46,671 nt of DNA from a phage (GCA_030877765.1 GCA_030877765.1_4853.1), one strand, 5' to 3'. Shown: positions 2,859 through 25,192, numbered from the stretch's first letter. The notes: generated from the sequence alone by a model not told the origin. Translations and numbers: made by a program.

Positions 2859-3803
2859 TTATAAATTAAACTGTTTTTTGAACCATTCAGGCGTTTCCAT
2901 TTCTATGACAGGATTACCCATTGAATAACCGGGCCACGAATTGGCTTTTTTGCACGCCTTGTAAATTTCCATAGCGCCATGCAACTGAATTCGACCGATG
3001 CGTAATTGCTCTTCAGTCAAGCGAATTAACGCAGGAATAAATGGTGCTTTCTTTTCCTGAACGAGAAGATTAACAGAGCGTGGCGCATGACCATATGCCG
3101 CAACAAACATGTCGTGCTGCATCGCCATTTTCATAAAGTACCCAAGTCTCGCAGCATGACGGAAAAACTCTTCTGGCTTGGCGCTCACCGCTGTTTTGTA
3201 GTCGATGATGTCGCCACCTTTGGTAAGGCAGTCAAAGCGAACTTTTGCCTTCTCTCCGTTAAGTTCACCTAGAATTGACACTTCAGCATAAGCACCAGCG
3301 AGAAGACTGCTGTAATAGCTGTTTGCGTGGATTACAGCACGCATTTGCTGAATAGCGTCATAATCACCACCTTCCAGCATTTGCTTTCCTACAGCAGCTT
3401 TTTCAGCCTCTTCACGGATGACATCGTAAATTTTCACTGGCTCGCCAGTCGCCTGGATGATTTTGATCACCTCAGCTTTCGACTTTCCTGAAAGTCCTTT
3501 GATGCCTCGTTCTTTTGCCCATGAGTTCATATCACTTACAGTAACAAGCAGGTCATCACCAAAATCTTCTTTGGTTGGCATTCGTGCATATTCAGCATCA
3601 AAACGCTCTGGTTCAAGCAACGCAGTATGGCTACCTGTACCGAATATAAGAGCTTTTGATTGCTCATCCTCTTCGTCTTTGTATCGCCATGCTGCCGGGC
3701 ATCTGTCAAGTATATTCCATAATCCAGAACCATTAATGTGCTCTGTGTCAGCATGATAATCCTGATTGCTTAATTCATTGTTGAAATAAACTCTCATCAT
3801 CAC
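2859..3803 (-). CDS. PD-(D/E)XK family nuclease (RecB/Cas4-like exonuclease)
   Basis: GGDIIDYKT motif with downstream acidic residues; same operon as ATPase and SSB as in phage recombination modules. Confidence 0.65.
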   Translation of the reverse strand: MMMRVYFNNELSNQDYHADTEHINGSGLWNILDRCPAAWRYKDEEDEQSKALIFGTGSHTALLEPERFDAEYARMPTKEDFGDDLLVTVSDMNSWAKERGIKGLSGKSKAEVIKIIQATGEPVKIYDVIREEAEKAAVGKQMLEGGDYDAIQQMRAVIHANSYYSSLLAGAYAEVSILGELNGEKAKVRFDCLTKGGDIIDYKTAVSAKPEEFFRHAARLGYFMKMAMQHDMFVAAYGHAPRSVNLLVQEKKAPFIPALIRLTEEQLRIGRIQLHGAMEIYKACKKANSWPGYSMGNPVIEMETPEWFKKQFNL

Positions 3804-4426
3804 TCTCCGTGGTTACAGAATTCTTTATGCATCTTTTCTCTGAATTTCATCACAGACAACCTCGCTCTCTCAATATCATTGAATAACCCAAGATGGTATC
3901 TTTTCCCGTTAACATCACAGTAAGCATGCCACTTTTTAACCTGTTTTTGCCAATACACACCTTTAACTCCTGATGTGTTATTTTTTGGTTTTTTAGCGTT
4001 ATACTGGTTCTGCATATTTGTTGCGATTCTTAAGTTGCAAATCCTGTTATCGTCACGCACACCGTTAATGTGATCAATTTGACCTTCAGGCCAGAAACCA
4101 TAATAAATCAACCATACCAAGCGATGCGCGTAGTATCTTTTATTATTTATGCTTATCTCTATGTATCCGTTATGTTTTTTCCTGCCAGCGACACTACCCT
4201 TTCTTACACCTCCACCCGTCTTATTTCTAATGAAAACCCCTGTTTCATGGTTGTAATTTAAGCTATCCAAAACAACATAACGTGGTATTCTTTTTCTTCT
4301 TCCTATGGTGTTTGACTCTGCACTTCCCTGAGCAAAATCTTGCTTTTGCAGTTCCGATAAACTCATTTCCACAAACCTCGCACTTCTTAACGGTGATAGC
4401 CATTTCTTACCCTCTATTGTAATCAT
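3800..4426 (-). CDS. HNH-AP2 homing endonuclease (paralog 1 of 4)
   Basis: AHRLVWLIYYGFWPEGQIDHINGVRDDNRICNLR (HNH) followed by NTSGVKGVYWQKQVKKWHAYCDVNGKRYHLGLF (AP2). Confidence 0.85.
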   Translation of the reverse strand: MITIEGKKWLSPLRSARFVEMSLSELQKQDFAQGSAESNTIGRRKRIPRYVVLDSLNYNHETGVFIRNKTGGGVRKGSVAGRKKHNGYIEISINNKRYYAHRLVWLIYYGFWPEGQIDHINGVRDDNRICNLRIATNMQNQYNAKKPKNNTSGVKGVYWQKQVKKWHAYCDVNGKRYHLGLFNDIERARLSVMKFREKMHKEFCNHGE

Positions 4427-12695: not shown

Positions 12696-12849
12696 ACAGA
12701 AAGTCTGGCAACTCGCAAAGCAGCACGAATTAGACGATTTCATCGAGAAGGTTGCAAAGACATTCCCTGACGCGCTTGAAGTCGTTCATGTGCAGACGCG
12801 AAATGAAAATGCATGGTGCTACACAAAAAATCATACAAATGGTAGATGA
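12682..12849 (+). CDS. Hypothetical small protein (55 aa)
   Basis: ATG at 12682 within track ORF 12616-12849. Confidence 0.3.
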   Translation: MQTTKQKVWQLAKQHELDDFIEKVAKTFPDALEVVHVQTRNENAWCYTKNHTNGR

Positions 12850-13276
12850 AATGAAGCTAACAAAAAAACAACGCGAAGAGCTACGCATGAAGTTCGGTGG
12901 TCGCTGTGCTTATTGTGGGTGTGAGCTACCCGAGAAAGGTTGGCATGCAGACCATGTTGAACCAGTGCTACGTAAATCTGAGCAGTGCATGAAGGCAGCG
13001 GCGAAAGGGATTTTCAAGCTGAAGGCAACCGGTGAGCTATATCGACCAGAAGCAGAGCGACTGGAAAACCTTTACCCTGCGTGCGCCCCCTGCAATCTGA
13101 TGAAAACTTCCTATTCCCTGGAAATGTTCAGGAAGCAGGTATCTCTTCAGGTTGCTCGTGGGCGCAAAAGCAGCATGAATTTCCGCACTGCAGAGCGTTT
13201 CGGTCTTATCGCCGTGGTGGAGAAACCAGTTGTTTTCTGGTTTGAGAAATACCAGGAAGAGAACGAAAAAAAATAA
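12839..13276 (+). CDS. HNH endonuclease (terminase-associated type)
   Basis: CAYCGCEL...HADHVEPV...ENLYPACAPCNLMK: Cys4-type HNH motif, positioned just upstream of the terminase genes. Confidence 0.8.
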   Translation: MVDEMKLTKKQREELRMKFGGRCAYCGCELPEKGWHADHVEPVLRKSEQCMKAAAKGIFKLKATGELYRPEAERLENLYPACAPCNLMKTSYSLEMFRKQVSLQVARGRKSSMNFRTAERFGLIAVVEKPVVFWFEKYQEENEKK

Positions 13277-13410
13277 ATGTGTTTATGATGCTCTGTTGGC
13301 AAGCGCGATAATGATGGTGTACAATAAACGCATAACCACCATTGCTTTCACTTATATCATCACCCAACCTTTAAACCGCCTTGTGCGGGTTCTTTTTTAT
13401 CTACGTCTAT

Positions 13411-13450
13411 GTGTTAAAATTAGCGTATGTGTGTTAAAATTAGCGTATGT
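13411..13450. repeat. Perfect 20-bp tandem direct repeat x2
   Basis: GTGTTAAAATTAGCGTATGT at 13411-13430 and again at 13431-13450, between the HNH gene and terS. Confidence 0.9.
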
Positions 13451-13476
13451 GAGTTACTAAAAGAGCACAAAAAGAC

Positions 13477-13917
13477 ATGGCGAATCCAAATCCAAAACAC
13501 AAGTTTTCCTCTACAAATCAACCGCCTCCGCGCGGTAAGAGTTATCGCACAGTGCTGCTTGAGGCGCTTCGTGCTGCAAATACACCGATGAATGAGATTG
13601 AATTCGTCACGTATTACATCAATAGGGCCATGACATGCGAAGACGCTCAGGCAACTGGTATGCTTCGAGAGATATTCCTGCGGCTCAACCCAATTCCTAA
13701 GCCTGTAGCTCCTCCTGTGGAGTTTGACTTCCCTGCTGACGGAACTCCGGTTCAGAAAATGGATGCAATCATCAAGGGTGTCTCCACTGGCGTCGTGCCT
13801 GCTGACATCGGCAAGATGATGGCTGACATTATCAAGTCTGGCCTTGATATTCAGGAAATCACCGAACTCGCAGCGCGACTTGAGCGACTGGAGAAATTGC
13901 TGGAACAGCAACAGTAA
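13477..13917 (+). CDS. Putative terminase small subunit
   Basis: 146-aa protein upstream of the large terminase with helical, coiled-coil C-terminus; assigned by position and size. Confidence 0.5.
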   Translation: MANPNPKHKFSSTNQPPPRGKSYRTVLLEALRAANTPMNEIEFVTYYINRAMTCEDAQATGMLREIFLRLNPIPKPVAPPVEFDFPADGTPVQKMDAIIKGVSTGVVPADIGKMMADIIKSGLDIQEITELAARLERLEKLLEQQQ

Positions 13918-14019
13918 CTGATTTATAATAATTAATGCGGCAAAGGGTAGCTCCCTGCCTGGATTGGTCTCCGGGCTGCCGCATCCATCCAGTGACCGCC
14001 TTTAACCGAGGATTCAATA

Positions 14020-14532
14020 ATGCGACCCTTAAAAGAAGAAAAACTCACGCAAGACAGGCTGAAAGAGTTGCTGCATTATAACCATGATACTGGTATTTTC
14101 ACATGGGTTCAGCGCGCCTCAAAAAGCGTAAGAGTTGGTAATTCAGCTGGCAGTAAGAATAAGTCAGGCTATATAGATATACGCATCGATAAGTCTTTAC
14201 ACAAAGCTCATCGGCTTGCGTGGCTTTACATTTATGGTGTGTGGCCCAATGGGAAAATAGATCACATCAATAACGTGAAGACAGATAACAGAATCTGCAA
14301 CCTGAGAGAAGCAAGCAATAATGAAAACGGATGGAATGCTGGTAAACCATCGACAAATACGTCAGGAGTAAAAGGTGTGAGTTGGGATGCAGAGAAAAAT
14401 AAATGGAAGGCGCATTGCAGGGTTTTTGGGAAAAAATATACAGTAGGTAGGTTTTCATCAAAAGAATATGCTGAGAGAGCCGTGGCGGAGTTCAGAGAGA
14501 AACATCACGGGGAGTTTTTTAATCATGGCTAG
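14020..14532 (+). CDS. HNH-AP2 homing endonuclease (paralog 2 of 4), between terS and terL
   Basis: AHRLAWLYIYGVWPNGKIDHINNVKTDNRICNLR followed by NTSGVKGVSWDAEKNKWKAHCRVFGKKYTVGRF. Confidence 0.85.
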   Translation: MRPLKEEKLTQDRLKELLHYNHDTGIFTWVQRASKSVRVGNSAGSKNKSGYIDIRIDKSLHKAHRLAWLYIYGVWPNGKIDHINNVKTDNRICNLREASNNENGWNAGKPSTNTSGVKGVSWDAEKNKWKAHCRVFGKKYTVGRFSSKEYAERAVAEFREKHHGEFFNHG

Positions 14533-15949
14533 AAAAAGACTCTCAAGTGTGGCAATCGAAAAACTTGAACAGGCGGTTGGAAACTCAACTTCAAAGCCTG
14601 AGTCTGCTGTATTTGGCATTGTTAACAAACTGCTTGCCGATGGTACGCCTAATGTTATAAAGCGCCTAAAAATGACATCAACAGGCGTATCTGAAACAAA
14701 CGAAGAACCAACAATACTCATTCCCGAGAGAATGGAATTACTGCTTTATCCTCGCCGTTTCAAAGTGTTCTATGGAGGTAGGGGCAGCGGAAAGACGGCT
14801 AACGTTGTTTCTTACCTTATAGAAAAGGCAAGATTTCGCAACAGCCGCGTCGGATGCTTTCGTGAGATACAGAACTCAATCAAAGAATCAAGCTATGCCG
14901 AACTGGTTGATGAGATAAACAGGAAAGGACACACTCAGGAATATCGTTGCGTGGATGGTGAAATAACCCACCATTCAACGAGGTCAAAGTTTGTTTTCCG
15001 TGGTTTGTGGCGAAATATAACCGCCATTAAGGGTATGGCTGGCCTTACAGATGTATTCTGTGAAGAATCAGAAAATATCAGCCAGGTTTCATGGGATACG
15101 CTAATCCCAACAGTCCGCGCCGCTGGCTCTGAAATTATTATTGTTTTTAACCCAAACAAAGAGACGGACCCGACATGGACTAACTTTGTTGCGCCTTATA
15201 TTGACAAGATGGTTGACGGCATATATCAGGATGATGACATCGTTGTTGTTAATGTTAATTACATCCACAACCCGTGGTTCACGGAAGAACTTAAGCAGCA
15301 CATGAACCAGATGAAAGCTGTGGATTATGATCGCTACCTTTGGGTGTATGAAGGCTTATTCAACAAGCGGTCTGACGAAGCTGTTCTCGGGGGGAAATGG
15401 CAAACACTCGACTTTGAACCATCTCCTGAGTGGGGTGGGCCTTACTACGGCATTGACTTTGGTTTTTCTCAGGATGCAACAGCAGCAACTGAATCATATG
15501 TAGAAGATTTGGGTGATGGACGAAGAAACCTGTATATCTATCGTGACTTTGCAAAGGTTGGCCTTGAGATAACTGACACGCCGGAAGCGATGCGCTCAGC
15601 ATTCCCAAATTCAGAGAAGTACAGATGGTATGGGGATTGCGCAAGACCTGAAACAATAAGCCATATACGACGCTCTGGATTCGATATTCATCCGTGCGCA
15701 AAATGGCCGGGGAGCATTGAGGACGGTATTACGTGGCTGCGTGGGTGTGACAGGATTTACGTGCACTCAAGATGCAGGCACGTCATTGAAGAGATGACAA
15801 TGTACAGCTATAAGGTGGACAAATTAACAGGTAACATACTCCCTGATATAGTTGATAAATACAATCACGCGATTGATAGTTTACGCTATGGACTTGGAGA
15901 TCACATCGTTCAACGCGGTAGCGGGATGCTAATCCGGCGCAGTCGATAA
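14525..15949 (+). CDS. Terminase large subunit
   Basis: Walker A YGGRGSGKT, ATPase and nuclease domain layout; ATG 14525 overlaps the HNH stop. Confidence 0.9.
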   Translation: MARKRLSSVAIEKLEQAVGNSTSKPESAVFGIVNKLLADGTPNVIKRLKMTSTGVSETNEEPTILIPERMELLLYPRRFKVFYGGRGSGKTANVVSYLIEKARFRNSRVGCFREIQNSIKESSYAELVDEINRKGHTQEYRCVDGEITHHSTRSKFVFRGLWRNITAIKGMAGLTDVFCEESENISQVSWDTLIPTVRAAGSEIIIVFNPNKETDPTWTNFVAPYIDKMVDGIYQDDDIVVVNVNYIHNPWFTEELKQHMNQMKAVDYDRYLWVYEGLFNKRSDEAVLGGKWQTLDFEPSPEWGGPYYGIDFGFSQDATAATESYVEDLGDGRRNLYIYRDFAKVGLEITDTPEAMRSAFPNSEKYRWYGDCARPETISHIRRSGFDIHPCAKWPGSIEDGITWLRGCDRIYVHSRCRHVIEEMTMYSYKVDKLTGNILPDIVDKYNHAIDSLRYGLGDHIVQRGSGMLIRRSR

Positions 15950-23121: not shown

Positions 23122-23423
23122 TATTTAATCTCTCCGTTCAGTTCATTAACAATTAACGTTGCATAGCCAGCAATATCTTTCCAGCTGTCATCATAAGTCG
23201 GGTCGCCATTCAGAATGCGCCCAATCTTGTGCTGAATCATGTCGAGCGCCTCGCGTTGACTTGGTGTGAGATTGCGCCAGCCATCTACCTTGCGCATCAC
23301 ATCTTTCAACTCCTGCATAATTTCAGCGCCGTCTTTGAATTTACCGTATCGACTACCGCGTTCGGTGATGAGTCGCTCTGTTGCGTCAGTATGGCGCTTA
23401 TCGCCCGTGATTTGTGAACTCAT
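23121..23423 (-). CDS. Hypothetical protein (100 aa)
   Basis: Operon-coupled ORF. Confidence 0.45.
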   Translation of the reverse strand: MSSQITGDKRHTDATERLITERGSRYGKFKDGAEIMQELKDVMRKVDGWRNLTPSQREALDMIQHKIGRILNGDPTYDDSWKDIAGYATLIVNELNGEIK

Positions 23424-23910
23424 TGTGATGCATTCTCCTGAATTCTTTTATTTTTGCTTCTGCTTCTCTTATGTCGGAAAAGTAACCAACTGTGAATCTT
23501 TTGCCATTTACTCCAACTCTTGCATGCCACTTGTTGTGCGATGAACTCCAGTTAACCCCCTTGATACCGCTAGTGTTGTTTTTGTTCATTGCTTTGTTGT
23601 GGCTATTCTCAAATTTGCTGGCCTCCCTTAAATTGCACGCCCTGTTGTCATTGCGAATGCCATTAATGTGGTCAATCATTTCACTTGCTGGCGCGCCATG
23701 AATGCATATCCATGCCAATCTGTGAGCAAGAAAAGCCCTACCGCAAAGAATTATTTGCACATATCCATCTGGCTTTAAGTAGCCAGCCACACTCCCTTTT
23801 TCTGCAATCCTATTCCTTGTCTTTAGCCATTTAAATTCCCCAGTTAGTGGATTGTAGTAAAGGTAACTCAATATAAACTCCCTACTCGGCTCATCTCTCC
23901 TATGCCTCAT
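23398..23910 (-). CDS. HNH-AP2 homing endonuclease (paralog 3 of 4)
   Basis: AHRLAWICIHGAPASEMIDHINGIRNDNRACNLR followed by NTSGIKGVNWSSSHNKWHARVGVNGKRFTVGYF. Confidence 0.85.
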   Translation of the reverse strand: MRHRRDEPSREFILSYLYYNPLTGEFKWLKTRNRIAEKGSVAGYLKPDGYVQIILCGRAFLAHRLAWICIHGAPASEMIDHINGIRNDNRACNLREASKFENSHNKAMNKNNTSGIKGVNWSSSHNKWHARVGVNGKRFTVGYFSDIREAEAKIKEFRRMHHNEFTNHGR

Positions 23911-24470: not shown

Positions 24471-24665
24471 ATGGCGCATGACGAACTGTACGAAGAATCG
24501 TTAATCCAGAGGTTGAATGAAGTTGAGCGCACTCGCGAATGGCTGGAGTGCGAGTTACGAGAAGTGCGCAACCGCCTGCAACGCAAGCGCAGTCAGCAAA
24601 GAGATGTCATCGACTGGTCTGGGGGTACACCTAAATTTAACAATCTGGGAGAATGGTTGAAATGA
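24471..24665 (+). CDS. Hypothetical protein (64 aa)
   Basis: Track ORF in operon orientation. Confidence 0.4.
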   Translation: MAHDELYEESLIQRLNEVERTREWLECELREVRNRLQRKRSQQRDVIDWSGGTPKFNNLGEWLK

Positions 24666-25192
24666 GCAACATTAGTAAGGAAAGCATTTTAAAGTTCCTC
24701 CAGCATGATGAAAATACAGGAAACTTTCTATGGATTGATAATTTCTCAAGAAAATCAAAGAAAGGGAAGGTGGCTGGAGGTATTACATCGCATGGGTATT
24801 GGAGAATTCAACTCCCCATCGGGAGGTTTTACGCACACAGAATGGCGTGGATTGTTTGCAATGGAGATATACCAAACGGATATGAGATTGATCACATAAA
24901 TGGGAACAAGAAAGATAATCGCATCAGCAACCTAAGATTGGTCACAAGAGGTCAAAATGTTATGAATGTAGGCGTGAAAAACAATAATACAAGCGGAGTT
25001 AAGGATGTTGTTTGGGACTCTTCGCGAGAAAGGTGGAGGGTTCAAATTACAGCCAATGGCAAGCATTATTATGGAGGTAGATTCTCGTCAATAACACAAG
25101 CAAAAGAGGAGAGGAACAGGCTCATAAAGATGGTTCACGGGAAATTTTTGAATACAAAAGGTGAGCAATATGACACTACTAATGAACGATGA
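24653..25192 (+). CDS. HNH-AP2 homing endonuclease (paralog 4 of 4)
   Basis: AHRMAWIVCNGDIPNGYEIDHINGNKKDNRISNLR followed by NTSGVKDVVWDSSRERWRVQITANGKHYYGGRF. Confidence 0.85.
   Translation: MVEMSNISKESILKFLQHDENTGNFLWIDNFSRKSKKGKVAGGITSHGYWRIQLPIGRFYAHRMAWIVCNGDIPNGYEIDHINGNKKDNRISNLRLVTRGQNVMNVGVKNNNTSGVKDVVWDSSRERWRVQITANGKHYYGGRFSSITQAKEERNRLIKMVHGKFLNTKGEQYDTTNER

Follow-up and report, generated by a model that had tools for sequence, protein, structure and literature searches.

We propose that positions 13912-14551 of the window (the whole phage stretch of 46,671 nucleotides that was analysed) are a free-standing homing-endonuclease cassette that invaded the junction between the small (terS) and large (terL) terminase genes of a Skatevirus-like phage, and we give this reading a probability of about 85%. 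The window belongs to a Skatevirus-like siphophage: its HNH-terL region is 99.3% identical to that of Escherichia phages HC6, 6947 and HC8A, and ~90% identical to that of relatives from Salmonella, Klebsiella and Escherichia. The initial annotation had already described an insertion of a homing endonuclease gene at the terS/terL junction, and this description is now supported by the polymorphism of the insertion slot, by the presence of four paralogues, by a low synonymous divergence of the nuclease gene and by the linkage between the nuclease and a patch of recoded codons at the beginning of terL. The locus is composed of the following features.

13477-13917, + strand: presumed terS, 146 aa, all-helical, with a basic N-terminus and a long C-terminal helix; labelled from its position
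13912-14551, + strand: whole mobile cassette, comprising a new terS stop, a leader, the ORF of the HNH-AP2 protein and the recoded beginning of terL; limits set against nuclease-free relatives
13915-13917, + strand: new TAA stop codon for terS, supplied by the cassette
13924-13929, + strand: TATAAT (-10-like) box where the cassette leader begins, read from the sequence, with a putative promoter role
13935-13984, + strand: three-way stem-loop with outer stem ATGCGGC/GCCGCAT, present in both the minimum-free-energy and the centroid folds
14008-14012, + strand: Shine-Dalgarno GAGGA, 7 nt 5' of the HNH-AP2 start codon and kept in homologous leaders
14020-14532, + strand: HNH_3 + AP2 gene, 'type 1' allele, 170 aa, lying between the presumed terS and terL
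14509-14514, + strand: GGGGAG within the 3' end of the HNH-AP2 ORF, a candidate terL ribosome-binding site brought by the cassette
14525-15949, + strand: terL, 474 aa, PBSX-family large terminase (Terminase_3 and Terminase_3C, E 6e-36; TIGR01547)
14531-14551, + strand: recoded terL codons 3-9 (AGA AAA AGA CTC TCA AGT GTG), 21 nt, defined by junction alignments

The HNH-AP2 protein consists of an I-HmuI-type HNH(N) nuclease core, of the beta-beta-alpha-metal kind, followed by a C-terminal AP2 DNA-binding domain. Pfam places HNH_3 (PF13392) at residues 62-104 (E 1e-13, above the gathering score) and AP2 (PF00847) at residues 115-161 (E 2e-4, below the gathering score), PHROGs matches the 170-aa protein to phrog_99, 'HNH endonuclease' (E 1e-67), and the sequence carries the HRLAW, WP, IDH, DNR, NLRE and EN boxes of the 'HNN-AP2' endonucleases of Xanthomonas phages (PMC2248197). 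[quoted passage not shown] The protein shares 100% amino acid identity with HC6_0001 of Escherichia phage HC6 and 92-93% with its homologues in KFS-SE2, Skate, LPST10, ZX4 and YX3973. Three paralogues, identified by tblastn and Pfam, bring the number of HNH_3 + AP2 genes in the window to four.

3803-4366, - strand: HNH_3 + AP2 paralogue, 54% identical to the 14020-14532 protein, with HC6_0067 as its counterpart in HC6
23404-23910, - strand: HNH_3 + AP2 paralogue, 44% identical to the 14020-14532 protein, missing from HC6
24650-25153, + strand: HNH_3 + AP2 paralogue, 36% identical to the 14020-14532 protein, missing from HC6

The catalytic-type residues D81-H82, N90 and N103 are unchanged in all four proteins. 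Seszw_1 also harbors three HNH-AP2 paralogues, at sites differing from those of the window. The two copies missing from HC6, a genome otherwise 99% identical, have opposite orientations and are separated by ~740 nt.

We compared the terS/terL junction itself across 23 different close loci, drawn from annotated records and from IMG/VR. Five states of the slot were found, with identical boundaries throughout (L numbers are our locus labels).

Slot empty: Seszw_1 and L026; terS and terL overlap by 11 nt (ATGGCTCGTAA)
Slot with 135-150 nt of filler: Bas78, L007, L015, L017, L018, L019 and L022; unrelated sequences of several kinds that encode small hydrophobic ORFs
Slot with a type-1 gene (at least 92% protein identity): HC6, KFS-SE2, Skate, VSt472, LPST10, ZX4, YX3973 and L021, that is, 8 loci besides the window
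Slot with a type-2 HNH-AP2 gene (~45% amino acid identity to that of the window): IME207, Sf11, L014, L016 and L023 (5 loci)
Slot with a type-3 HNH-AP2 gene (54% identical to that of the window): L024 (1 locus)

In some relatives terS and terL are thus adjacent and overlapping (Seszw_1 and L026), and others carry different inserts in this very slot. The possibility that the gene is a conserved core gene, which would have spoken against homing, was considered and does not hold, as the gene is missing from close relatives; the homing-endonuclease reading therefore stands. All the cassette matches of at least 90% in the phage collection adjoin terL, and the element is therefore site-specific. The type-2 gene equals type 1 in its 510-nt size, its ends and its 8-nt overlap with terL. 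Cassettes of the two types have both ends in common (~35 nt on the 5' side and, on the 3' side, ~38 nt together with the recoded patch) and differ in the middle, a pattern which suggests cassette exchange between conserved ends. The fillers were considered as decayed HNH remnants and ruled out in this role, since they show no tblastn similarity and include several unrelated small hydrophobic ORFs; that of Bas78 (L001 1106-1264) encodes a 52-aa hydrophobic ORF. Because such unrelated fillers often occupy the slot of nuclease-free relatives, the terS/terL junction is a general hotspot for small inserts, beyond endonucleases.

The mobility of the cassette is also reflected in the divergence of the nuclease gene relative to its flank. 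Synonymous divergence, computed by the Nei-Gojobori method, is 3- to 100-fold lower in HNH-AP2 alleles than in the adjoining terL. For instance, the comparison of Skate with Klebsiella phage ZX4 gives 0.009 for the HNH-AP2 gene and 0.90 for terL, and near-identical alleles (99.6%) are found next to terL genes that are 15% apart. Between the window and the other type-1 carriers, the values are 0.18-0.21 for the HNH-AP2 gene and 0.59-1.69 for terL. Judged by these divergences, the element is younger than its flanks and has recently spread horizontally among diverged phages.

An alternative explanation is that the gene of the window is a decaying or domesticated relic that has ceased to home and is retained either as an AP2-type regulator of the late/packaging operon or as a spacer that supplies terL with its ribosome-binding site and overlap. 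The allele shared by the window and HC6 is the most diverged of the type-1 alleles (synonymous divergence ~0.2 from the others); it differs by 7% from the widespread type-1 allele, with its catalytic residues intact, and could be an older, possibly decaying copy. Moreover, the GGAG and the overlap at terL come from the cassette, a degeneration series of HNH-AP2 genes is known in Xanthomonas phages (PMC2248197), and SegD of T4 provides a case of an endonuclease without homing (cited in PMC9523250). Nevertheless, we consider a relic unlikely. The ORF has kept its full length, and the paralogues all agree in the catalytic D-H/N/N residues; the dN/dS ratio of the gene is ~0.24, and purifying selection therefore still acts on it; the near-identical alleles found beside diverged terL genes argue for a recent and active spread of type 1; and terL is expressed without the HNH-AP2 gene in nuclease-free relatives.

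The limits of the homing-endonuclease cassette could be set precisely from the junction alignments. Seszw_1 has 27 nt in place of window positions 13911-14549 and Bas78 has 150 nt in place of 13911-14524; relative to the empty site, the insert starts directly after ...GAGCAGCA and stops before ATGGCT. The initial annotation stated that the stop codon of the HNH-AP2 gene overlaps the terL start codon. The two ORFs do overlap, by 8 nt (ATGGCTAG), but with the terL ATG at 14525-14527 and the HNH-AP2 TAG at 14530-14532, the stop covers terL codons 2-3 and not the start codon. The GGGGAG of 14509-14514, whose GGAG is located 10 nt 5' of the start codon of terL, is shared unchanged by the cassettes of type 1 and by most of those of type 2. 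A coupling of HNH-AP2 and terL expression is plausible, given this GGAG and an overlap that mimics the one between terS and terL in nuclease-free relatives. More generally, the cassette appears to be designed to spare the host operon, since it ends terS with a new stop codon, brings a leader and a ribosome-binding site of its own, and equips terL with a GGAG and a stop/start overlap.

Upstream of the endonuclease gene, the outer stem of the leader stem-loop shows compensatory changes in three of its seven pairs among eight distinct sequences, a result equalled by at most 4 of 500 shuffles and by none of the slid controls. The leader as a whole folds no better than shuffled sequences (z = -1.4), and our claim is therefore limited to the covarying outer stem. 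A search of Rfam with 13300-14100 gave no match. At the TATAAT box, a sigma-70 consensus scan called no canonical promoter, because a matching -35 is missing; homologous leaders carry TGATATAAT, an extended -10. Similar leaders of 80-95 nt, 82-90% identical, are also found in further phages, where they lie at different loci and 5' of different endonuclease genes (window 13918-14019; counterparts at L050 1501-1578, L051 1501-1599 and L052 4060-4160). In ST46 and Segz_1, the leader copy precedes HNH-AP2 paralogues located after a head-morphogenesis gene and, in Klebsiella phage VLCpiS13e, it precedes a 368-aa T5orf172/MUG113 nuclease situated between tail genes. The leader may represent a regulatory element that travels with endonuclease cassettes, for whose stem-loop a 5' mRNA stabiliser, a processing site and an insulator are candidate roles.

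At the other end of the cassette, the first codons of terL distinguish carriers from non-carriers. In all nine nuclease-free junctions, codons 3-9 read CGT AAA CGC CTN TCN GCN CTG, whereas every one of the 14 junctions of type 1 or type 2, among them that of the window, has the recoded patch (these counts are not phylogenetically independent). The single type-3 junction (L024) is intermediate. Over 1425 aligned columns, carriers and non-carriers share no base only at terL nucleotides 7, 9, 13 and 25, and the between-group distance (0.25) exceeds the within-group distances (0.03-0.11) only in terL nucleotides 1-42; downstream of these, the same haplotypes are found with and without the nuclease. 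The MARKRLS start of TerL is common to all relatives. Such a pattern would be expected of a homing target spanning the terS/terL junction with a protected carrier allele, and the patch is a candidate for this self-protection. It could also be simply the 3' edge of a cassette that originated in another lineage, with no selected immunity.

Taken as a homing system, the cassette would operate as follows. Upon co-infection by a carrier and a nuclease-free relative, the enzyme would recognise the intact terS/terL junction, putatively about ...GAGCAGCAGAATGGCTCGTAAACGCCTNTCNGCNCTGGCAATCG, and would nick or cut it. The break would then be repaired by the phage Erf/RecE-like exonuclease VIII and SSB with the carrier genome as template, so that the cassette would be copied in. 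The carrier genome itself would be protected, its junction being split by the insert and its terL codons 3-9 being recoded.

A second nuclease gene is located on the other side of terS.

12822-13284, + strand: second variable cassette, 463 nt, with a Cys4 HNH; flanked by an imperfect direct repeat ATGGTGCTA / ATGATGCTC
12839-13276, + strand: Cys4 HNH ORF (PF01844, E 1e-5; phrog_2118, E 1e-58)

A sequence search of the Cys4 HNH protein against the PDB gave no significant match. Its cassette is present in HC6 and Bas77-79 and missing in Seszw_1, KFS-SE2 and L023. The earlier statement that two HNH nucleases bracket terS is correct, in the sense that the Cys4 HNH and the HNH-AP2 gene flank the 146-aa ORF, whose terS label is positional. 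This ORF has no match in Pfam, NCBIfam or the PDB, and its predicted fold matches only generic all-helical proteins. It adjoins terL with an 11-nt overlap in Seszw_1, overlaps it directly in L026 too, and has survived in the most reduced seszw mutant that is viable (36 kb); it was named terS because of this overlap in relatives and of its retention in a minimal genome.

Packaging HNH proteins are associated with HK97-type terminases, and the region just upstream of terS is reportedly the classical position of terminase-associated HNH proteins. One or both of the nucleases flanking terS might be accessory subunits of the packaging machine, like HK97 gp74, needed together with the terminase to cut cos or pac DNA. 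The Cys4 HNH is indeed a zinc-finger HNH of the PF01844 type just 5' of terS, the HNH-AP2 ORF shares 8 nt with terL, and homing and packaging roles are compatible in principle (Barth et al., PMC10448857). However, Seszw_1 is devoid of both 12822-13284 and 13911-14549, despite having a terS 99.3% and a terL 96% identical to those of the window; KFS-SE2 and L023, which both hold HNH-AP2 gene types in the slot, lack the Cys4 HNH; and in Bas77-79 and seven other loci the slot contains no HNH gene at all. Also against a packaging subunit are the assignment of TerL to the PBSX family (Terminase_3), the location of the three other HNH-AP2 paralogues at unrelated window loci, and the genome of KlebP_265, a more distant relative, which is reported to be permuted and terminally redundant by PhageTerm (PMC11769527).

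Additional evidence comes from the genome-reduced seszw mutants, which were isolated as plaques in a CRISPR reduction study (PMC9825161) and from whose deposited genomes we read the dispensability of HNH genes. Many of these genomes are without the HNH-AP2 paralogue upstream of the portal gene. In the viable mutant seszw_290S (MZ375352.1, 35,993 bp), terS and terL are kept, and tblastn found no HNH-AP2 or Cys4 HNH match below E 0.28. As a near-identical terminase functions without any detectable HNH, the link to HNH-assisted cos cleavage drawn in the initial annotation is not supported, and we regard a role of either nuclease as a packaging subunit as extremely improbable. By these genome comparisons, both HNH genes flanking terS are dispensable for this terminase, and the HNH-AP2 gene is almost certainly not required for DNA packaging. 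The seszw_290S genome (L049) also keeps portal, structural, replication and lysis genes and has lost all three HNH-AP2 genes; together with MZ375316.1 (L048), it offers a ready essentiality map of Skatevirus genes.

The packaging mechanism of seszw is stated as unknown (PMC9825161), the Skate genome announcement reports circular closure by PCR (PMC6606912), and our search for the packaging mode of Skatevirus found nothing direct in the literature, the papers on KFSST1, CECAV_048, BUCT541 and ZCEC08 giving no termini. The phage phiC119 was set aside as a comparison, being T1-like. The dispensability seen in Seszw_1 and seszw_290S excludes a packaging requirement and leaves room for a stimulatory or competitive role, in which the HNH-AP2 protein or the Cys4 HNH would nick or bind the terS/terL junction and thereby facultatively stimulate packaging initiation or favour carrier genomes. 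The DNA ends created in this way would lie next to the usual place of headful pac sites. Barth et al. mention a role of this sort in a general way (PMC10448857). We consider such a role very unlikely; if true, the homing of a selfish element and DNA packaging would share a mechanism, with the nuclease still non-essential.

Several other observations concern the neighborhood of terS. Two terS alleles, ~52% identical to each other, are freely combined with the slot states. Their N-terminal two-thirds are ~50% identical and their C-terminal third is conserved (window 13477-13917 versus L003 2003-2419, among others), and both alleles pair with TerL proteins 92-98% identical to that of the window. 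The alleles may differ in their DNA-recognition (pac) specificity while keeping the same TerL-binding tail. Upstream of terS, the Cys4 HNH cassette is inserted just 5' of a conserved promoter-like site (13296-13325; TTGGCA, 18 nt, TACAAT, with a TG-extended -10), which is followed ~50 nt further by a terminator-like hairpin (13374-13398; AACCGC-CTTGT-GCGGGTT and a run of six T). The region 13296-13398 is conserved in Seszw_1, Bas78, HC6 and KFS-SE2, and may combine a late promoter with a terminator close to it, for an antitermination control of the lambda PR'-tR' kind, or may encode a small RNA. Between this terminator and terS, positions 13410-13449 contain a 20-nt tandem duplication (TGTGTTAAAATTAGCGTATG twice); the unit is single-copy in Seszw_1, Bas78 and HC6, and the duplication is thus peculiar to the window.

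For annotation, these results mean that the appropriate label is free-standing HNH-AP2 homing endonuclease and not packaging factor, and that neither this gene nor the Cys4 HNH is evidence of cos packaging. Beyond correct annotation, the finding has little significance. The locus does offer a natural case of homing-endonuclease population genetics, with five slot states, a ~100-fold divergence contrast and a 21-nt patch marking the likely target. The E. coli isolates HC6 (carrier) and Bas77-79 (nuclease-free, BASEL collection) could provide a test system for HNH-AP2 homing in coliphages. Both HNH cassettes could probably be deleted when such phages are engineered.

Compared with known systems, the closest structural match differs in its setting: I-HmuI is encoded by a group I intron, its C-terminal DNA-binding part is a helix-turn-helix and not an AP2 domain, and it nicks one strand. 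HNH proteins of the HK97 gp74 type are conserved with an HK97-type terminase, portal and cos ends, and the cleavage of cos depends on them. The window resembles this type (Kala et al. 2014; discussed in PMC10448857) in having an HNH gene beside the terminase genes, and its Cys4 HNH shares PF01844 and the position 5' of terS. The Cys4 HNH thus fits the family and the location of the gp74 type, but not its conservation, as it is missing in relatives. The HNH-AP2 protein belongs to another HNH subfamily (PF13392 with AP2) and is encoded between terS and terL; both HNH genes of the window are dispensable among near-identical terminases, and its TerL is PBSX-type.

The HNH-AP2 gene is not novel and belongs to the known free-standing HNH(N)-AP2 homing endonucleases of phages (Magnani et al. 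2004), which include the 'HNN-AP2' proteins of Xp10, OP1 and Xop411 (PMC2248197) and to which the IPA-HNH of ICP1 is related (PMC10448857). Homing-endonuclease genes are reported to cluster near terminase genes (PMC10448857). The same gene, at the same position and with the same 8-nt terL overlap, is found in HC6 (HC6_0001) and, at 92-93% protein identity, in Salmonella phage Skate and Klebsiella phages YX3973 and BUCT541 (ORF81), whose records give the name only, with no mobility analysis. The orthologues of Skate ('HNH homing endonuclease'), LPST10, YX3973 and BUCT541 are publicly annotated as homing endonucleases, and the BUCT541 paper so names the 170-aa ORF81 upstream of terL (PMC9523250). 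The window gene shares with the HNH(N)-AP2 family an N-terminal HNH_3-type core with the same boxes and no cysteine dyads, a C-terminal AP2 domain, a length of ~170 aa, the occurrence of several dispersed paralogues per genome and an intergenic insertion beside essential genes, terminase included. Nothing essential differs; the lineage of the window is specific to Skatevirus-like phages, with Escherichia, Salmonella and Klebsiella as hosts, and its slot is exactly the terS/terL overlap.
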